Positions 5,030 through 25,756 of a stretch of DNA of 64,000 bases are shown here, in pieces; positions within the stretch are counted from its first letter, which is position 1; every line of letters begins with the position of its first letter. The position numbers were made by a program, and so were the translations under genes. Below the pieces are notes generated by a model. It saw only the letters and a list, made by a program, of their open reading frames with translations. It did not search any database and was not told the DNA's origin. This DNA is from Enterobacteria phage GiZh, in the sequence record NC_054903.1, one strand, 5' to 3'.

Positions 5030-5557
5030 TTATGCGAGTACCGTCTTTAACCGTTCTTCAAACTTCCGAAGAGTATTCTGGCGTTCAGCTCTTTGCTTTT
5101 TGTAAGTTTCAATACGCTCTGAAATGAGAGTGTATCGTTCATTTACTGATTCTTTCATAAAATCAGGAATTTCACGAGAAGCTTTAATCTCGTCAAATTT
5201 ATCAATAACTGCTTGCTCTTCAGCAATTAAGTTATCATACATCAAAATATCTTTCTTGATGAACTCAATATCTTCTTGAGTTACACGAGATAATTTAGAT
5301 GCTTTATCCTTTTTGTACTGTTCGTTAGTATCACGAGACCAGTGTAATGTACGATTTTTATTCGTATTCTTGTAAATTTCTACAATACCAATCTCATCGA
5401 TAATAATGATCCAATTCCAACGGGATTTGTAAATTTGTCCTCCATCAACCGTGATTTCACCTCCAATTGAGATGTCATTAAAGAACTTGCTTTGTGCTTC
5501 AGATTTAAATTTACCATCGTTGTAATTTACCAAGTTAAAAATATCTTTAGCATTCAT
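5030..5557 (-). CDS. hypothetical protein, 175 aa, C-terminal coiled coil
   Basis: ORF track; ATG with GGAGG upstream; early promoter element at 5585-5613 immediately upstream. Confidence 0.7.
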   Translation of the reverse strand: MNAKDIFNLVNYNDGKFKSEAQSKFFNDISIGGEITVDGGQIYKSRWNWIIIIDEIGIVEIYKNTNKNRTLHWSRDTNEQYKKDKASKLSRVTQEDIEFIKKDILMYDNLIAEEQAVIDKFDEIKASREIPDFMKESVNERYTLISERIETYKKQRAERQNTLRKFEERLKTVLA

Positions 5558-5584
5558 TTTTGTTCCTCCGTAGTTGATAGTTGT

Positions 5585-5613
5585 ATAGTACCACAGAGGA
5601 ACGGTCTTGTAAA
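5585..5613 (-). promoter_or_regulatory. early promoter (PeSL-type): -35 TTTACA, 17 bp, -10 TACTAT
   Basis: Shares the 22-mer AGTTGATAGTTGTATAGTACCA (plus-strand reading) with the elements at 7024 and 22283; precedes the gene at 5030-5557. Confidence 0.55.
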
Positions 5614-5616
5614 CAA

Positions 5617-5919
5617 CTAAAAGAAACTTCTTTCACAATTTTTTCCACTGAACCATGCGCTCACTGCTTTCTTAGTCTCAGGAGCGGTGTTATCCATAAA
5701 CCATTCAAATGCAGCCTTTTTATGATTCTGGAGGGCTTCTCGGGCTTTAATCTGCTCACGGTCTATTAACACTAACATATGAGCCTTTCTTGTCACCAAG
5801 GGCTTCTTATGATTTTTTGAATATTCCCAATCATTTGTCCAACGCATTGTCGTTGCGAACTGAAATACTGCTTCTTTAATTTTAGTTTCGTAAATTTCAC
5901 GAGCCTTTGAGTATAACAT
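5617..5919 (-). CDS. hypothetical protein, 100 aa
   Basis: ORF track 5617..5931 trimmed to ATG at 5919 (MLYSKAREIY) which has GGAGGT upstream; the ATG at 5931 has no Shine-Dalgarno. Confidence 0.6.
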   Translation of the reverse strand: MLYSKAREIYETKIKEAVFQFATTMRWTNDWEYSKNHKKPLVTRKAHMLVLIDREQIKAREALQNHKKAAFEWFMDNTAPETKKAVSAWFSGKNCERSFF

Positions 5920-9108: not shown

Positions 9109-9420
9109 TCACTTTGAAATCATAGTTGGAATGACAGAATCAAGATAAGTCTTTAGTGCAATAGCTTCGTCTTTGGTAAATGTGACAATATGTGCTCGAG
9201 AATCATCATTTTGGCGAACAAGTACGACATCGCCATCTTCATAAGAAGTCTTGACATCCAAAGTCGTAGTATAGTTTGCAGCTACTGGATTAATAATGTT
9301 AGCACCGCGATCTTTAGCCCATTGAAGTTTAGCCTTTTCGGGTGTTTCGGCTGTTTCAGATTCTAAGAATTCTTTCACCTTGGCAACGAATGTTGCCCAA
9401 TTGTTGATAGAAAGACACAT
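9109..9420 (-). CDS. hypothetical protein, ~103 aa (start uncertain)
   Basis: ORF track 9109..9480 starts at GTG and overlaps the upstream gene by 50 nt; first in-frame ATG is at 9420 but lacks a clear Shine-Dalgarno. C-terminus EAIALKTYLDSVIPTMISK is paralogous to 8581..9102. Confidence 0.5.
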   Translation of the reverse strand: MCLSINNWATFVAKVKEFLESETAETPEKAKLQWAKDRGANIINPVAANYTTTLDVKTSYEDGDVVLVRQNDDSRAHIVTFTKDEAIALKTYLDSVIPTMISK

Positions 9421-9430
9421 AAATTCAGTT

Positions 9431-9652
9431 TCAAATATTACCGCCGTAAAGGCCACGATAAAAACGAACTTGGAGGTCACCTGTAATATTAGTTACACCG
9501 GTAACTCCTGAGGGAGCATAAGATAAAATCGCAGCCAGTTCCATAGGAAGAATAGTAATACTATCGTCTTCCTGCGTCAGAACGTATACATTACCGCGTT
9601 TTTCGATAACTAGGTCACCGAACAAATCAGTTGTTTCAATTACAGCTTTCAT
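9431..9652 (-). CDS. hypothetical protein, ~73 aa
   Basis: ORF track 9431..9664 (TTG start) trimmed to ATG at 9652; positioned for translational coupling to the upstream gene stop. Weak support. Confidence 0.45.
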   Translation of the reverse strand: MKAVIETTDLFGDLVIEKRGNVYVLTQEDDSITILPMELAAILSYAPSGVTGVTNITGDLQVRFYRGLYGGNI

Positions 9653-9653
9653 A

Positions 9654-9839
9654 TTATTTACCAATTAAAGTTTCAATATAAGAATCAAGATTTACTTTAG
9701 CTTCTTCCATAAGAGTTTTGTATTTAATCTTGTTAGCATGTCCGGAGAAAGCTGATTCATCAATAATTGTTGATGTATGAACAGCTTTACTATACGTCTC
9801 AATTAATTCTCTTAATTTAAAAGCCTGCTCACTTGTCAT
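9654..9839 (-). CDS. small helical protein, 61 aa
   Basis: ATG with GAGGAG upstream; early promoter element at 9972-10000 upstream. Confidence 0.55.
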   Translation of the reverse strand: MTSEQAFKLRELIETYSKAVHTSTIIDESAFSGHANKIKYKTLMEEAKVNLDSYIETLIGK

Positions 9840-9971
9840 TACATACTCCTCTGAATCATATCAATAATGTTGTTTACCAAATTATAAGTAAACATTGGGT
9901 AATTATATTGAATCATCACATACACAACAAACAAAACTTTCATTCTCTTCTCCTTGGCAGTTGACAAGATT

Positions 9972-10000
9972 ACTATACCATAACCTTGCCAACTTGTAAA
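9972..10000 (-). promoter_or_regulatory. early promoter-like element: -35 TTTACA, 17 bp, -10 TATAGT
   Basis: Located in the 170-bp intergenic gap upstream of the gene at 9654-9839. Confidence 0.45.
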
Positions 10001-10006
10001 CCATTA

Positions 10007-10177
10007 AATGACGTTTTCAATAAAATTCTGAAGCTTTGTGTGAGCATCAACCATGATTTTCATTTCTTCTTTGGCGAAAGCTGTACCTCTTTCCCGAGCA
10101 GAATACTCATAGTCAGAAACTGCATTAGCATATTCTTCAATTAGCTTCATTAAAAACATCTGCTTTTCAGTTTTCAT
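10007..10177 (-). CDS. small helical protein, ~56 aa (below the ORF-track length cut-off)
   Basis: My own translation of the minus strand: MKTEKQMFLMKLIEEYANAVSDYEY...; resembles neighbouring small ORFs in composition. Coordinates approximate. Confidence 0.4.
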
Positions 10178-10361
10178 TATTCCACCTAATCATTTCAAGA
10201 TATTGAACTAATTTAGCTTTAGATTTGTCCAAATCCTTTTTAGCTGCTTCTATACCGTCGTATGAATATCCTTCACAATGCTCAACTGCTAATTGGTATG
10301 AATCTATTTCAATATCATGCGCTAATTTAATGATTTTTTCAAACTGTTCGCGTGTTAGCAT
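10167..10361 (-). CDS. small acidic helical protein, 64 aa
   Basis: ORF track; ATG start. Confidence 0.55.
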   Translation of the reverse strand: MLTREQFEKIIKLAHDIEIDSYQLAVEHCEGYSYDGIEAAKKDLDKSKAKLVQYLEMIRWNNEN

Positions 10362-10363
10362 AA

Positions 10364-10567
10364 TTAAACTCTCGTATTATGATCGATAATTTCATCAAGA
10401 AACATATCTAACGCTTCTAAAGCATTATCAACTTTAGCTTCAAGTTCATCAATACCTTTATTTGCAATGCCTGACGAAAACCAAGCAAAGTCACTAAGTT
10501 CCTCGTCTGCTTTACGAATTAAAGCTACCAATTCTTTAATCTTATCCGCTTGCTCTATACTAATCAT
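10364..10567 (-). CDS. small acidic helical protein, 67 aa
   Basis: ORF track 10364..10603 trimmed to ATG at 10567 ([13 protein letters not shown]) with GGTGG upstream; TAATG overlap with the upstream stop. Confidence 0.55.
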   Translation of the reverse strand: MISIEQADKIKELVALIRKADEELSDFAWFSSGIANKGIDELEAKVDNALEALDMFLDEIIDHNTRV

Positions 10568-10755
10568 TATTCCACCACATATGACAGAGAGAATATTGCA
10601 CACGCCATGTGAGTTGCAACTTCATCACACATATTATAACGTTTCTTAAGAAATTCTACAAGTTCTTCACTAGTAACTTCATCCATGTCGACGAAAAAAT
10701 CACCATTAATGATGACGTAGATATTTCCTTCTTGATTGAGTGCTTCAATTTTCAT
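10567..10755 (-). CDS. small acidic protein, 62 aa
   Basis: ORF track 10567..10800 trimmed to ATG at 10755 ([10 protein letters not shown]) with AGAGGAG upstream; the longer version would start inside the promoter at 10784-10812. Confidence 0.55.
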
Positions 10756-10783
10756 GATGTTCTCCTCTTTATCCGATAGTTGT

Positions 10784-10812
10784 ATAGTATCACAGCTCAA
10801 ACGGAAAGTAAA
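10784..10812 (-). promoter_or_regulatory. early promoter (PeSL-type): -35 TTTACT, 17 bp, -10 TACTAT
   Basis: Immediately downstream of the terminator at 10818-10845 and upstream of the gene at 10567-10755. Confidence 0.55.
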
Positions 10813-10817
10813 CCGGT

Positions 10818-10845
10818 AAAATGAAAAAAGTCTCCCGAAGGAGAC
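10818..10845 (-). terminator. rho-independent terminator after the gene at 10851-11237
   Basis: Stem GTCTCC-(CGAA)-GGAGAC followed on the minus strand by UUUUUUCAUUUU. Confidence 0.75.
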
Positions 10846-10850
10846 TAATG

Positions 10851-11237
10851 TTATTCGAGGGAAAGAAGATACTTACTCTGGTAAAACATTCCAGTAATAT
10901 CATCTATCGTGCTTTGGATGGCTGGAGGCATTTCTTTATAAATGCTGTTAGATTGGTCTAGTATGTGATCAATCATTTTAATTGTGTCGGTAGGAAGTTT
11001 ACTGGCATCTGGAATTGAAGGCGTGTATTTTCTACCAGAATACCCCAAATATTGCTCACCAAATTTATCAATCAAATCTGGCAACTCGGAGAAAATAAAA
11101 TCGTATGCTTTGTGTCTAGCATAACTTTTAGTTTCAAAATGTGCAGAATGAAAATAAGCTTGTGCAGCCATTAATAAACCTAAGTATTCATCTGCCTTTG
11201 AAGGTTTTCCACTTTGTGAAAAGTCGCTGAATTTCAT
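10851..11237 (-). CDS. hypothetical protein, 128 aa (position of T4 rI.-1)
   Basis: ORF track; ATG; immediately downstream of rI. Confidence 0.7.
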
Positions 11238-11527
11238 TCAGTCTCCAATTTAATGTTCATAATTCTAGCGTATGATTGTGCCATCTCCGCGCCTCGTTCT
11301 ATACATTCAAAATCAGAAGAGCACGGGTCATTTTTATAGGTCGTTCTCATAAAACTATAGAATTGTTCAGACGATTCTACGCTTTTATTTTCAAAAAGTG
11401 TATAAACGTGCCTAATACCAGATTCCATAAATTTATCAAAATGAGGATCGACATTCGCTTCAATCGATGGAGATAAAACAAATGACAATCCTAGCATGGC
11501 AAAAAGTGCCGTTGCTTTTAAGGCCAT
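11234..11527 (-). CDS. rI: RI lysis-inhibition regulator (membrane-anchored, periplasmic)
   Basis: 97 aa, MALKATALFAMLGLSFVLSPSIEANVDPHFDKF...; I recognise this as T4 RI; N-terminal signal-anchor; AGGAGG upstream. Confidence 0.9.
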   Translation of the reverse strand: MALKATALFAMLGLSFVLSPSIEANVDPHFDKFMESGIRHVYTLFENKSVESSEQFYSFMRTTYKNDPCSSDFECIERGAEMAQSYARIMNIKLETE

Positions 11528-11539
11528 AAAGGCCTCCTA

Positions 11540-11752
11540 TCATTTTTGTCCTGTATTTACTTTATGCCGATGCACGGCCTTAACTTTATCAAGGTATTTT
11601 TCAAAATTTCGCAATCTAGTATAGTCTGCCGGAGATTGGTTGAGTGATACTTCTCGACGCAAAGCTGAAATGATATTTCCAACTTCCCTACGAATTTCAT
11701 CTAATTGAAGAACAGTAAGATTGCGAAGTTGCTTTTCAGTTAATTGTAGCAT
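11540..11752 (-). CDS. hypothetical protein, 70 aa (position of T4 rI.1)
   Basis: ORF track; ATG with AAAGGGG upstream. Confidence 0.65.
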
Positions 11753-11794
11753 ATATACCCCTTTAGTTAGATAAACCTATTTATAACTTTTGCA

Positions 11795-12376
11795 CTAACC
11801 GAGCTTTTTAGTTAATTCATTCCAATGTTTTCTGCACAAAGAAACATAAATTTCATCACCAATACAGATTTGATTACCTTCTTTAACTGGTGTTCCATCT
11901 TCCATTAATCGAGCTGTCATAATCGCTTTTTTGCCGCAATGACAAACTGCCTTTAGTTCAATAAGTTTATCTGCAATCGCTAAAAGTTCTTTAGAACCTT
12001 CAAACAATTTTCCAGCGAAATCAGTCCTTAATCCATAAGCCATAACAGGAACATTATATGTATCAACAATTCGGCTCAATTGATGCACCTGTTCAGTTTT
12101 TAAAAACTGAGCTTCATCTACAAATACGCAATGAATATCTTTTTGTGCTTCAGCCCATTTATAGAACTCGAAAATATCCATATCATCTGTAATAATATTC
12201 GCTTCCTGTTTAATTCCAATGCGAGAAACAACTTCACAGACAGAATCGCGAGTATCAATAGCAGGCTTAAGAACTAATACACTCATTCCACGTTCTTTAT
12301 AATTATGTGCAGCAGTCAAAAGAGAAGCAGATTTTCCAGCATTCATTGCTGCATAAGTAAAAATTAAACTCGCCAT
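11795..12376 (-). CDS. tk: thymidine kinase
   Basis: 193 aa; N-terminal P-loop-like AAMNAGKS and two CxxC pairs typical of type II thymidine kinases; matches T4 Tk length and sequence from memory. Confidence 0.92.
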   Translation of the reverse strand: MASLIFTYAAMNAGKSASLLTAAHNYKERGMSVLVLKPAIDTRDSVCEVVSRIGIKQEANIITDDMDIFEFYKWAEAQKDIHCVFVDEAQFLKTEQVHQLSRIVDTYNVPVMAYGLRTDFAGKLFEGSKELLAIADKLIELKAVCHCGKKAIMTARLMEDGTPVKEGNQICIGDEIYVSLCRKHWNELTKKLG

Positions 12377-12385
12377 ATCACCTTC

Positions 12386-12571
12386 TTAAAGCGTATTCAC
12401 ATAAGCTATTAATTCATTTTCTTTCTTATCAAACCGATCAGCAAATTCTTCCTGCTGTTCTGGAGATAGCGGGCCGTATTCATCATAAAAGGTGTTTGCT
12501 TCTATATGCTCATCTAGAAGTTCATGGATAAGCTCAAACAATTTATCTTTTTGTTCTTTGCTTAGACTCAC
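12386..12571 (-). CDS. small acidic helical protein, 61 aa (GTG start)
   Basis: ORF track; only start is GTG at 12571; composition like the 9654-10755 small proteins. Confidence 0.5.
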   Translation of the reverse strand: MSLSKEQKDKLFELIHELLDEHIEANTFYDEYGPLSPEQQEEFADRFDKKENELIAYVNTL

Positions 12572-12740
12572 AGTATGTCAATCCCCAAAAGTTTTAAAAT
12601 GACTCGTTTCTGATTCATAACCGCTACGATTGAATGACCGTTGGGGTCTTTTTGACCTGATCCAATTATAAATCCTTTTTGCGCAGAAAGTTCAATCAAA
12701 ACATCAAGTTCACGTAATAATTGATATTTTAAATCATCAT

Positions 12741-12953
12741 TCATTTTGGTTTACCTTCTTTAACGAAATCAGGATAAGGATAAAATCCTGAATAAAATCC
12801 TTCACCTTTATGATTGATGCATCCTTTATTAGAACAATAGCACCAATAATCGAAATCACAAGCCATTTCATCGTTGCATAAAGCAAAAACAACCGGCCAC
12901 TTACACTTTTCACAGTGGGCATTTTTAAGAATACTAGTTTGGCTCATAACCAT
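12741..12953 (-). CDS. cysteine-rich small protein, ~70 aa
   Basis: ORF track 12741..12968 (TTG start) trimmed to ATG at 12953; multiple Cys (CEKCKW...CNDEMACDFDYWCYCSNKGC) suggest metal binding. Confidence 0.5.
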   Translation of the reverse strand: MVMSQTSILKNAHCEKCKWPVVFALCNDEMACDFDYWCYCSNKGCINHKGEGFYSGFYPYPDFVKEGKPK

Positions 12954-13156
12954 GTAACCTTTAAGCAATATTCTTCTACATGTTGTTTACGACCTTTCTT
13001 ATCAATAAAGGTATATTCAACGAATGTTCCAATGTAGTCTTTATCTACATCATGTGGACTATTAATTGGACATTTAGTACGGCAAATGCGTTCCCATTGA
13101 CGAATAATTACTGCTTTGTTTTTAGGATCAAACGGATGCGGGTAATGTACTTTCAT
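12944..13156 (-). CDS. small Cys/His-containing protein, 70 aa
   Basis: ORF track; ATG with GGTGG upstream. Confidence 0.5.
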   Translation of the reverse strand: MKVHYPHPFDPKNKAVIIRQWERICRTKCPINSPHDVDKDYIGTFVEYTFIDKKGRKQHVEEYCLKVTWL

Positions 13157-13607
13157 AATCCACCACTATTAAATCAATATCAGGAGTAAACATGTCGATT
13201 AATTTAGAAACCTTATCCCAATCGCCGCCAGCAATACCACAACCTATGCGTGGAATGTAAATTACCGGTTTAAACAAAAGGGTTTCTGCCTGTAGATTTA
13301 ATTCTATCATGCAGTTTACTAAAGCACCATAATCAAGATTAGGACCTGGTTCGTATTGCGTATACAAGTTATAACATATGCCAAAACCATTAGGTTTATG
13401 TTTAAAAACAATAGACATATCGCCTAATTTATCACGAGAACCGTACTCAGTAGTGGTTTTATCTATTTCTAAAATTTTGGGATAGGCTCTTGCTAATTGA
13501 CCCGCTACACCTGAACCCATAGTATGAAAACAATTGCACCCGTGCGCAATAATATTACCTTGAAGAAATAGGGCGACAATATCGCCCTTGATATATTTTG
13601 CAATCAT
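13128..13607 (-). CDS. macro-domain (ADP-ribose binding/processing) protein, 159 aa
   Basis: Motifs GDIVALFLQGNIIAHGCNC, MGSGVAGQL and IGCGIAGGDW correspond to the three conserved macro-domain loops; ATGA overlap with the upstream gene. Confidence 0.8.
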   Translation of the reverse strand: MIAKYIKGDIVALFLQGNIIAHGCNCFHTMGSGVAGQLARAYPKILEIDKTTTEYGSRDKLGDMSIVFKHKPNGFGICYNLYTQYEPGPNLDYGALVNCMIELNLQAETLLFKPVIYIPRIGCGIAGGDWDKVSKLIDMFTPDIDLIVVDYESTLPASV

Positions 13608-23344: not shown

Positions 23345-23420
23345 TGGTCGAGGCAGTAGGGATCGAACCTACGACCTAGGACTTAGAAGGTCCTTGCTCT
23401 TCCTTCTGAGCTATGCCTCG
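23345..23420 (-). tRNA. tRNA-Arg (anticodon UCU)
   Basis: Acceptor CGAGGCA/TGCCTCG, anticodon stem-loop AGGAC-CTTCTAA-GTCCT, T-arm GTAGG-TTCGATC-CCTAC, CCA encoded. Confidence 0.82.
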
Positions 23421-23424
23421 GATT

Positions 23425-23499
23425 TGGCGGACGTGATAGGATTCGAACCTATAACCAATCGCTTAACAGGCGATCGCTCTGCCATTGAGCTACACATCC
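23425..23499 (-). tRNA. tRNA-Asn (anticodon GUU)
   Basis: Sequence GGATGTGTAGCTCAATGGCAGAGCGATCGCCTGTTAAGCGATTGGTTATAGGTTCGAATCCTATCACGTCCGCCA. Confidence 0.82.
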
Positions 23500-23503
23500 A
23501 AAT

Positions 23504-23590
23504 TGGTGGGGAGTGATGGAGTCGAACCACCCGAGTCGCAATGACAATGGATTTACAGTCCACACCGCTACCTCTACGGGATAACTCCCC
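23504..23590 (-). tRNA. tRNA-Tyr (anticodon GUA), class II
   Basis: Acceptor GGGGAGT/ACTCCCC, anticodon stem-loop GTGGA-CTGTAAA-TCCAT, variable arm TGTCATTGCGACTCG resembling bacterial tRNA-Tyr, T-loop TTCGACT, CCA encoded. Confidence 0.75.
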
Positions 23591-23602
23591 TAATTCATAA
23601 TT

Positions 23603-23677
23603 TGGTGGCCCTGGGTGGAATTGAACCACCATCTGGCGATTATGAGTCGCTTGCTTGAACCTTCCAGCTACAGGGCC
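23603..23677 (-). tRNA. tRNA with anticodon CAU (Ile with modified C34, or Met)
   Basis: Acceptor GGCCCTG/CAGGGCC, anticodon loop CTCATAA, T-arm GGTGG-TTCAATT-CCACC, CCA encoded; starts 1 nt after tRNA-Thr. T4 has an Ile tRNA at this position (memory). Confidence 0.75.
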
Positions 23678-23678
23678 T

Positions 23679-23754
23679 TGGTGCTGATTGACGGAATCGA
23701 ACCGCCGACCTTCTCATTACAAGTGAGTTGCTCTACCTACTGAGCTAAATCAGC
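23679..23754 (-). tRNA. tRNA-Thr (anticodon UGU)
   Basis: Acceptor GCTGATT/AATCAGC, D-arm GCTC-AGTAGGTA-GAGC, anticodon loop CTTGTAA, T-loop TTCGATT, CCA encoded. Confidence 0.85.
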
Positions 23755-23759
23755 AAAAC

Positions 23760-23849
23760 TGGCGGAGGCGATAGGATTTGAACCTATGAGTCGCCGGAGC
23801 GACTGCCGGTTTTCAAGACCGGTGCATTAAACCACTCTGCCACGCCTCC
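23760..23849 (-). tRNA. tRNA-Ser (anticodon UGA), class II
   Basis: Acceptor GGAGGCG/CGCCTCC, anticodon loop CTTGAAA, long variable arm, CCA encoded; starts 2 nt after tRNA-Pro. Confidence 0.85.
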
Positions 23850-23851
23850 AG

Positions 23852-23925
23852 TCTCCATACAAGGATTTGAACCTTGGACCTCCTGATCCCAAATCAGGCG
23901 CTCTACCAAACTGAGCTACACGGAG
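23852..23925 (-). tRNA. tRNA-Pro (anticodon UGG)
   Basis: Sequence CTCCGTGTAGCTCAGTTTGGTAGAGCGCCTGATTTGGGATCAGGAGGTCCAAGGTTCAAATCCTTGTATGGAG; CCA not encoded. Confidence 0.88.
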
Positions 23926-23935
23926 TAAATTAAAT

Positions 23936-24009
<74 letters not shown>

Positions 24010-24014
24010 AAATT

Positions 24015-24101
24015 TGGTGCGAGAAGTGGGACTCGAACCCACAAGGAAATCATTCCGCAGCATTTTAAGTGCTGTACCTTTACCAATTTGACCATTCTCG
24101 C
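24015..24101 (-). tRNA. tRNA-Leu (anticodon UAA), class II long variable arm
   Basis: Acceptor GCGAGAA/TTCTCGC, T-loop TTCGAGT, anticodon loop CTTAAAA, CCA encoded; starts 1-2 nt after tRNA-Gln (dimeric precursor arrangement). Confidence 0.85.
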
Positions 24102-24102
24102 G

Positions 24103-24175
24103 CTGGGAATAAAGGACTCGAACCTTTGCATCCTGGAATCAAAATCCAGTGCCTTACCAACTTGGCTAATTCCCA
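24103..24175 (-). tRNA. tRNA-Gln (anticodon UUG)
   Basis: Hand-folded cloverleaf: acceptor TGGGAAT/ATTCCCA, T-arm AAAGG-TTCGAGT-CCTTT, anticodon loop TTTTGAT; CCA not encoded. Ends +/-2 nt. Confidence 0.85.
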
Positions 24176-25188: not shown

Positions 25189-25422
25189 TTATTTTTTACG
25201 AAAAATTGATTTATTTTCTGCTGCCCATTTTTCAATAACTGCAGCAGGACCAGTAACAACAATTTTATCACCGTAATCTTCTGCGGCGAGTTGACCGAAA
25301 TTATCTAATGCATCACGAAGAACTCCATGAGGCATTTCACCCATTTTATCTTTCTTGCCGGTGTAAATAAACTCAACTTTTACATCAGAAGATTCAGCGA
25401 TAAACTCTTTGAAAGTTTTCAT
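25189..25422 (-). CDS. internal-protein-like capsid-targeted protein, ~77 aa (ipI locus)
   Basis: ORF track 25189..25488 trimmed to ATG at 25422 giving MKTFKEFIAESS..., a capsid-targeting-type N-terminus; the table start lies upstream of the promoter at 25457-25485. Confidence 0.6.
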   Translation of the reverse strand: MKTFKEFIAESSDVKVEFIYTGKKDKMGEMPHGVLRDALDNFGQLAAEDYGDKIVVTGPAAVIEKWAAENKSIFRKK

Positions 25423-25456
25423 TTTGATTTCCATTTGGTTTTGTTTTGATAGAGTA

Positions 25457-25485
25457 ATAGTATCACTACTAAAACCCTGTGTAAA
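25457..25485 (-). promoter_or_regulatory. early promoter (PeSL-type): -35 TTTACA, 17 bp, -10 TACTAT
   Basis: Near-identical copy of the element at 25787-25815, including the upstream tract caactttgtgaaattattttaaatc; precedes the IP-like gene at 25189-25422. Confidence 0.6.
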
Positions 25486-25498
25486 CAACTTTGTGAAA

Positions 25499-25756
25499 TT
25501 ATTTTAAATCTTCTAATCGTTTCTTCATCTTAGAACCATTTTTAGCAATTTCTCCTGCATCTGAGCATAATGCTAAAAGCGCTTTAACTTTAGTTTGGTC
25601 TCCTTTAAAAGATGAAGGATCGACTGCAGCAGCAAGTTCTTTAATACGAGAGAAAAGACGCTCAGCTTCAGCTAAAGCCATTCCAAGCTTTACTTCCATA
25701 CCGTGGGAAGATTCGGTGATAGTAGTTTTTGTAGCAAACTCTTTGAAAGTTTTCAT
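25499..25756 (-). CDS. internal-protein-like capsid-targeted protein, 85 aa (ipI locus)
   Basis: N-terminus MKTFKEFATKTTITESS; flanked by near-identical promoter cassettes at 25457-25485 and 25787-25815. Confidence 0.65.
   Translation of the reverse strand: MKTFKEFATKTTITESSHGMEVKLGMALAEAERLFSRIKELAAAVDPSSFKGDQTKVKALLALCSDAGEIAKNGSKMKKRLEDLK

Follow-up and report, generated by a model that had tools for sequence, protein, structure and literature searches.

The closest described counterparts of the genes considered here are mobD.2a, mobD.3, mobD.4, tk.1 and tk.2 of bacteriophage T4, all members of the Pfam family DUF7438. In time-resolved omics of T4, the RNA of all five was classed as early; the protein was classed as early for MobD.3 and MobD.4 and as middle for Tk.1 and Tk.2, and none was called for MobD.2a (PMC9697503 supplement files 4 and 6). 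All five genes were scored 'Not Fit' by CRISPRi-ART in T4 (PMC11879866 supplement file 15), and a viable, genome-reduced T4 has lost the block nrdC.11-mobD.3 (PMC9825161); the dispensability of DUF7438 genes in laboratory hosts has been shown in T4 by others. Full-text literature searches for DUF7438 and the mobD.x names returned incidental mentions only, namely of the mobD.5 promoter, the deletable block, omics tables and CRISPRi tables, and no functional study of any member. With these T4 genes we compared five short open reading frames (ORFs), here called A to E, on the minus strand of a 64,000-nucleotide stretch of Enterobacteria phage GiZh (NC_054903.1; the whole stretch is referred to as the window). 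All five, which the original prediction had proposed as one family of short proteins from the letters of the DNA, were found between positions 9654 and 12571, and their sequences identify them as paralogues of a single small phage-specific family, DUF7438; four correspond to MobD.2a, MobD.3, MobD.4 and an allele of Tk.2, and the fifth is absent from T4. The paralogy itself is not new and is already on record in Pfam and PHROGs; the CRISPRi-ART supplement (PMC11879866) places MobD.3, MobD.4, Tk.1 and Tk.2 under phrog_653.

Each of the five ORFs matched the 57-position Pfam model DUF7438 (PF24219; gathering score 25 bits) from end to end, covering model positions 1-56 or 1-57 of 57 with scores of 57.0-69.5 bits. 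Paralogue A (9654..9839; 61 amino acids; 57.8 bits) belongs to phrog_4859 and paralogue B (10004..10177; 57 amino acids; 59.8 bits), an intact MobD.2a, to phrog_2758. The remaining three all fall in phrog_653: C (10167..10361; 64 amino acids; 66.5 bits), which is MobD.3, D (10364..10567; 67 amino acids; 57.0 bits), a long-loop allele of MobD.4, and E (12386..12571; 61 amino acids; 69.5 bits), an allele of Tk.2 with a GTG start. Cross-matches were observed among the three PHROGs (653, 2758 and 4859). The 67-residue length of D is counted from the ATG chosen in the original prediction, while B, which had been listed there as an ORF of 56 amino acids, does exist but is one residue longer.

Direct comparison among the five gave weak similarity, with pairwise identities of 23-34% and a best BLASTP E-value of 2e-4 in a five-sequence database. 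A recurring N-terminal pattern had been put forward as the mark of the family, and in its strict form (EQ..K[LI].EL[IV]) it had three matches across the 66,644 residues of the window's six-frame ORFs, where 0.0008 would be expected. These matches were confined to A, D and E, so the pattern holds strictly for three of the five, and the N-termini of B and C carry only degenerate versions of it (EKQMFLMKLI and EQFEKIIKLA, respectively). As the direct pairwise similarity is weak, the pattern is by itself no proof of homology. Pairwise profile comparison of the five ortholog groups also returned low probabilities, because each group alignment is shallow and family-wide models are needed. A non-circular hidden Markov model (HMM) was trained on only 26 members, each with under 45% identity to every one of the five. 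Searched against the 1,194 six-frame ORFs of the window, this model found exactly the five, with E-values from 5.6e-13 (A) to 6.9e-7 (B), the next ORF following at 0.049. When the ortholog groups were left out one at a time, each omitted gene ranked first among the non-training ORFs of the 1,194 (E 0.008-0.5), and T4 Tk.1, which is neither in the window nor in the training set, scored E 2e-8 in the family model. We consider this profile evidence decisive and, on such sequence grounds, the homology claim solid. The proposal of one paralogous family was thus borne out both by PF24219 (57-70 bits) and by an independent HMM that singles out the same five ORFs, and the alignment and profile check that had been suggested for it showed significant profile similarity among all of them.

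No further DUF7438 member was detected by the family model among the six-frame ORFs of the 64 kb window. Three superficially similar products, rI.1 (11540-11752), that of a 58-amino-acid ORF (12568-12744) and MobD.5, were considered and gave no family match. The ORF that came next in the non-circular search (25499-25756) was also rejected, as it is internal-protein-like and its match is therefore ascribed to chance. This ORF and the adjacent one at 25189-25488 both start with MKTFKEF, which we take to resemble the N-terminal capsid-targeting sequence of T4 internal proteins.

The five products had been described as helical, and AlphaFold2 models built with family alignments confirmed this for the two proteins on which it was run. 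D was modelled as an antiparallel two-helix hairpin with helices at residues 4-30 and 37-65 (predicted local distance difference test score, pLDDT, 81), and E as the same fold with helices at residues 5-32 and 37-60 (pLDDT 91.5). With lengths of 57-67 amino acids across the set, within the range of about 55-70 expected for a single domain with a common fold, each paralogue is predicted to be a single antiparallel hairpin of about 60 residues. The conserved columns of the family include an S/T-x-E-Q helix start resembling a capping box at the N-terminus, the K-L-x-x-L-I hydrophobic residues of helix 1, a small mid-helix residue (alanine) and an L-x-x-[Y/F]-[I/L/V]-x-x-[L/I] stretch at the end of helix 2, near the C-terminus. 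In the models these columns would form the core that packs the hairpin at its open end, with the loop and the helix surfaces free to vary; within the ortholog groups of D (46 orthologues) and E, variation clustered around the loop, from the end of helix 1 to the start of helix 2. A sequence search of the PDB returned no solved structure below E 0.07, and neither NCBIfam nor the defence-side models of PADLOC gave meaningful matches for the five proteins. Taken together, the family assignment and the architecture of the five are in our judgement almost certainly right.

Compared gene by gene with T4, the five ORFs differ widely in how closely they follow their counterparts. C is 98% identical to T4 MobD.3. 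D is 76% identical to MobD.4 and has 67 amino acids against 60 in T4. B is 84% identical to the readable part of MobD.2a, the T4 reference gene being frameshifted to 38 amino acids where the window holds the intact 57-residue form. In the T4 reference sequence (NC_000866; 2997-3178 of the stretch compared) the C-terminal half of mobD.2a (…EEMKIMVDAHTKLQNFIENVI) was still readable in another frame. E, located directly upstream of tk, shares 54% amino acid identity with Tk.2 (5532-5717 of the T4 stretch), and the window has no copy of Tk.1, with ORFs of 58 and 70 amino acids inserted upstream of E. A has no T4 counterpart and sits between a mobD.2-like ORF and the mobD.1 homologue.

Coding constraint was examined by the ratio of nonsynonymous to synonymous substitution rates (dN/dS) using orthologues from T4, phage e11/2, PYPS2T, IME339, sb1, a Mosigvirus and a Gaprivervirus, which reach synonymous divergence (dS) of up to about 2. 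The ratio was 0.03-0.20 for C, 0.14-0.26 for D and 0.09-0.41 for E, while B gave 0.00-0.29 over six relatives, and by these ratios purifying selection is shown on the four genes B to E. A differs from its relatives by only 1-4 substitutions, too few for dN/dS, yet is intact in 191 phage records. Translation, which had been named as a point on which the prediction could fail, is evident from T4 for four members, the exception being the MobD.2a type; the missing T4 protein is explained by the frameshift in the reference gene, and the case for B as a gene in the window consists of its dN/dS range (0.00-0.29) and its Shine-Dalgarno site.

All genes across positions 9400-12800 are on the minus strand, and this region has 99.4% identity to Shigella phage Sf22 and 97-99% to hundreds of Tequatrovirus genomes; by its sequence the window is a Tequatrovirus (T4-like) genome. 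Gene order, given here in the direction of transcription, was derived by comparison with the Sf22 and T4 annotations. It runs from a Tk.3 homologue through the 70-amino-acid ORF, the 58-amino-acid ORF and E to tk, which is followed by rI.1, rI, rI.-1, a terminator and an early promoter. The mobD.5 operon then contains mobD.5, D, C and B. Its first gene, the mobD.5 homologue (10567..10755; 62 amino acids; phrog_3024), has no DUF7438 match. Behind a second promoter lie a mobD.2-like ORF, A and the mobD.1 homologue. The mobD.2-like ORF (9839..9943; 34 amino acids, hydrophobic) is not a DUF7438 member, and its Sf22 equivalent, gp3, is annotated as 'somewhat similar to T4 MobD.2'.

The promoter read from the sequence for mobD.5, D, C and B (10784..10813, minus strand; GTTTAC, a 17-nucleotide spacer and TGATACTAT) lies 29 nucleotides upstream of mobD.5 and is nearly identical to that of T4, with both hexamers unchanged. 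A generic scan missed it because its 8 of 12 matches fall below threshold; the T4 mobD.5 promoter has been mapped by primer extension (PMC1702504). The second early promoter (9972..10000, minus strand; TTTACA, a 17-nucleotide spacer and TG-n-TATAGT) was found by the scan with 10 of 12 matches plus the TG, serves the mobD.2-like ORF, A and the mobD.1 homologue, and has hexamers identical to those in T4. Its position matches that of the T4 early promoter Pe57954/Pe57.9 (PMC6024815). An intrinsic terminator after rI.-1 (10829..10846, minus strand; a 7-bp stem, a 4-nucleotide TTCG loop and a T run) separates the rI operon from the mobD.5 operon; it is conserved in T4, and the annotation of phage e11/2 also lists it as a terminator. 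The same terminator-promoter arrangement is found in the Mosigvirus compared, directly before its B-type gene. Four of the five DUF7438 genes follow these two T4-type early promoters within tightly coupled operons, and the fifth lies in the tk operon. The suggestion of early expression agrees with the conservation of both promoters with mapped T4 promoters and with the early transcripts of the T4 orthologues. Translational coupling, also suggested, is likewise borne out by the sequence, with TAATG overlaps at the mobD.5/D and mobD.2-like ORF/A junctions, a 2-nucleotide gap between D and C, an 11-nucleotide overlap between C and B, and the E start placed inside a GTGA overlap with the stop codon of the upstream 58-amino-acid ORF. 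Shine-Dalgarno sequences were clear for A (GAGGAG), B (GGTGGA), D and the mobD.2-like ORF (AAGGAG), and weak for C (GAGAG) and E.

Several further features were observed in and around these operons. The mobD.1 homologue (9109-9664) is broken up into two ORFs that overlap (9109-9480 and 9431-9664) where Sf22 has a single ORF of 180 amino acids. The split arises from one extra A in an A-run at position 9433, the sole difference from Sf22 in 560 aligned bases, and is either a genuine frameshift or a sequencing error in the homopolymer. A small Cys-rich ORF (12741-12968; …CEKCKWPVVFALCNDEMACDFDYWCYCSNKGCINHKGEG…), located between the 58-amino-acid ORF and the Tk.3 homologue and conserved in Mosigvirus AV110, may encode a zinc-binding mini-protein. 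Elsewhere in the window, positions 23345-24175 of the minus strand contain 10 tRNA genes (Arg, Asn, Tyr, Met/Ile-CAT, Thr, Ser, Pro, Gly, Leu and Gln); T4 carries 8, and those for Asn and Tyr would be extra in the window.

A profile search of 1.84 billion representative proteins returned only 26 clusters at E up to 0.001, and DUF7438 is therefore a very narrow family. Nearly all members that could be placed belong to Tevenvirinae (Tequatrovirus, Mosigvirus and Gaprivervirus). One copy, on the T4-like contig P0117, was found in a different early region, between homologues of 30.8 and frd.2. Two members were observed on metagenomic phage contigs of high GC content (59% and 64%) that are unrelated to T4 (L003, 6001-6213; L004, 1056-1232), and the family thus reaches, sparsely, beyond Tevenvirinae. 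The first of these phage contigs spans 62.7 kb and encodes a family-A DNA polymerase, an integrase and a deoxycytidine monophosphate (dCMP) deaminase.

The number of copies per locus ranged from 2 to 6 in eight relatives. The window and Sf22 each have 5, phage e11/2 has 6, T4 has 5 with one broken, IME339 has 4, and Mosigvirus APCEc01 has 3, while the two Gaprivervirus phages MN01 and TH54 have 2 and 4, respectively, with three of the TH54 copies in tandem. In TH54 (L018; 897-1085 and 2932-3556) the four copies lie within 6 kb, and the three in tandem form an overlapping head-to-tail array. Presence also varied by type, the A type being found in 191 phage records against about 700 carrying the region and the E/Tk.2 type in 726 records. 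E and T4 Tk.2 differ at 46% of residues, with dS near 1, in flanking genomes that are about 97% identical, which points to allele replacement by recombination and not to fast local evolution; as judged from these alignments, the position beside tk is a hot spot of recombination. The varying copy number and the deep divergence between alleles agree well with the view of the original prediction that the set is diversified.

Two names that are widespread for these genes were not supported by our searches. A carries the RefSeq/PHROG label 'helicase loader' (phrog_4859) with no supporting Pfam or NCBIfam match. Its 61 residues gave no Pfam or NCBIfam gp59 match at E up to 1, its only Pfam matches were DUF7438 and a sub-threshold ToastRack match (E 0.033), and no NCBIfam family was found. 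T4 gp59 has about 217 amino acids, and a separate gene is annotated as 'DNA helicase loader' in related genomes (a 654-nucleotide gene in AV110, WPK33919). We rejected an identity of A with the T4 gp59-type loader on the grounds of the lacking match, the length and the loader annotated elsewhere in AV110. Counterparts of D (10364-10567) and of mobD.5 (10567-10755) are named 'molybdopterin-guanine dinucleotide biosynthesis protein MobD' in RefSeq, and an identity of MobD.4 and MobD.5 with molybdenum-cofactor biosynthesis was rejected as there was no such match in Pfam or NCBIfam. The 'molybdopterin' name seems to derive from mobD, the symbol of a T4 homing endonuclease gene, and both names appear to have spread by annotation transfer.

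Membership in DUF7438 says nothing on mechanism. The mechanism that we rank as most likely, and which we hold only tentatively, is that hairpin dimers bind host proteins stoichiometrically. Apolar residues make up about half of the helices, a larger share than a single hairpin buries, and from this we infer that the hydrophobic faces would most likely serve dimerisation into four-helix bundles or docking into the helix-binding groove of a partner. Early in infection the proteins would then bind host proteins as stoichiometric modules, with the choice of target set by the loop and surface residues specific to each paralogue. Gain, loss and allele swapping between phages could in turn reflect host-specific usefulness in host takeover or counter-defence. 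For the counter-defence context, E shares its operon with a homologue of tk.4, a macro-domain protein gene (13128-13607) located four genes upstream; T4 Tk.4 was reported as the anti-DarTG2 factor AdfM (preprint 10.1101/2025.11.20.689424). The whole explanation, in which DUF7438 paralogues are hairpins made from early operons that bind host proteins, is the best we can offer, and we place it a little short of an even chance.

The only functional lead comes from a screen of 45 early proteins of Mosigvirus AV110, in which six inhibited E. coli growth (Gp94, Gp135, Gp204, Gp208, Gp214 and Gp263), the effect of Gp208 being strain-specific (bioRxiv 10.64898/2026.09.14.751387). We assigned the AV110 Gp numbers by counting the coding sequences of OR352940.1 in order, anchored on Gp94 (109 amino acids) beside the MotA-like Gp95. 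On this numbering, Gp204 is a MobD.2a-type member of 59 amino acids (47% identical to B), Gp208 a Tk.2-type member of 60 amino acids (57% identical to E), and Gp202 the member at the A position. Under these assignments, which would equate Gp204 with WPK34046 and Gp208 with WPK34050, two of the six growth inhibitors would tentatively be DUF7438 members.

Several observations weigh against the binding of host proteins. The AV110 mapping rests on our own numbering of coding sequences, under which Gp214 would be RegB, a gene of known function, and the assignment of Gp208 conflicts with the rule of that study that only homologues of T4 'early' or 'NA' genes were chosen, Tk.2 being 'middle'. The growth effects of Gp208 were weak, and the authors allow for metabolic burden (bioRxiv 10.64898/2026.09.14.751387). 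No DUF7438 member has a demonstrated partner or target. The conserved residues are structural and so give no pointer to a shared active surface. Foldseek searches of the PDB and BFVD returned generic hairpins and uncharacterised phage proteins, with best E-values of 0.39 and 0.02, respectively, and none at or below 0.001. Dispensability in the laboratory fits counter-defence and equally any minor role.

A more specific form of the host-protein mechanism was also considered, in which the copies are combinatorial hairpins forming homo- or heterodimeric four-helix bundles, each neutralising a different strain-variable host factor, for example a component of anti-phage defence. Such bundles would explain the tandem coupled arrays, the variable loops and the turnover in copy number, as well as strain-specific growth inhibition if Gp204 and Gp208 really are members; we judge this form to be quite unlikely. 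If it were true that these genes are multi-copy inhibitors of host factors or defences, at least 5 ORFs of T4 that were left as 'hypothetical' from the first genome sequence onwards would gain a function, and a very small, engineerable scaffold would join the anti-defence repertoire. As it stands, the analysis describes a real but catalogued paralogy, an intact MobD.2a where T4 has a pseudogene, and two widespread names that are unsupported.

After host-protein binding we rank, in descending order, a phage-internal adaptor, an acidic mimic and Rop-like binding of nucleic acids. Under the first of these, the small proteins would be adaptors or assembly factors for the phage's own nucleotide-metabolism or replication complexes. 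The genes do sit among nucleotide-metabolism genes (tk and the nrdC region), the member on the 62.7-kb contig adjoins the dCMP deaminase gene downstream of the family-A DNA polymerase and a DNA methyltransferase, and tight translational coupling suggests fixed stoichiometry. However, knock-down in T4 was without fitness effect, and close relatives freely lose, frameshift or replace copies. The loci share no conserved neighbour, the P0117 copy lying in another early region beside the 30.8 and frd.2 homologues, and the 'helicase loader' label of phrog_4859 is without sequence support. We consider a role of this kind unlikely, if still the strongest of the three.

Mimics are well known among the small acidic helical proteins of phages, Ocr and Arn being examples, and the original prediction had suggested that the five are effectors of this type, protein mimics or inhibitors. 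This remains a reasonable guess; in the form considered here, acidic mimics would imitate nucleic acid or the surface of a host protein and so block a DNA-binding enzyme. Isoelectric points (pI) of the A to E set were 6.06, 5.27, 5.02, 4.27 and 4.34, with net charges from -1 to -10. The description as acidic therefore applies in full to two of the five (pI 4.27 and 4.34; 16 D+E residues in 61-67 amino acids), which would suit a mimic, but the other three are only mildly acidic (pI 5.02-6.06), with A at pI 6.06 and a net charge of -1. Moreover, the acidic positions are not conserved columns, the conserved ones being hydrophobic core or helix-cap residues, and a hairpin of 60 residues is short for a DNA mimic. 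We regard mimicry as improbable.

A Rop-like function, in which hairpin dimers bind RNA or DNA and tune early gene expression, appears slightly more improbable again. Size and architecture match ColE1 Rop, a 63-residue hairpin that forms a four-helix-bundle dimer, and Rop variants were among the Foldseek matches with TM-scores of 0.69-0.80. Those matches were not significant, though (E 1.5), hhalign against Rop gave a probability of 0.2%, and there was no Pfam Rop match; homology to Rop was rejected on the profile probability. All five proteins are net negative (-1 to -10) and have no conserved basic patch. Lastly, that these ORFs are filler, decaying or without function, which a hyperplastic region retains by linkage only, would fit their dispensability in the laboratory, the frameshifted mobD.2a of T4 and their patchy presence, but is essentially excluded by the selection and proteomics data, with dN/dS well below 1 at dS up to about 2, ORFs intact across hundreds of genomes in several genera, protein detected in T4, and Shine-Dalgarno sites and promoters conserved.

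Among known systems, the T4 gp59 helicase loader shares nothing with A but the label. ColE1 Rop/Rom is alike in having about 60 residues, an antiparallel helix-loop-helix and broad hydrophobic faces of the four-helix-bundle kind. Rop/Rom is, however, an RNA-binding homodimer to which DUF7438 has no sequence relationship, and binding of nucleic acids by DUF7438 is unlikely given its net negative charge. AV110 Emp/Gp94 and T4 Alc, early host-directed proteins of the type found in overexpression screens, resemble the DUF7438 proteins in being early, small, dispensable in the laboratory and encoded in variable early regions, although Emp is an alpha/beta protein of 109 amino acids unrelated to the family. 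Against the DUF7438 set of T4 itself, the window has an intact MobD.2a, the additional copy A, no Tk.1, a long-loop MobD.4 and a divergent Tk.2.

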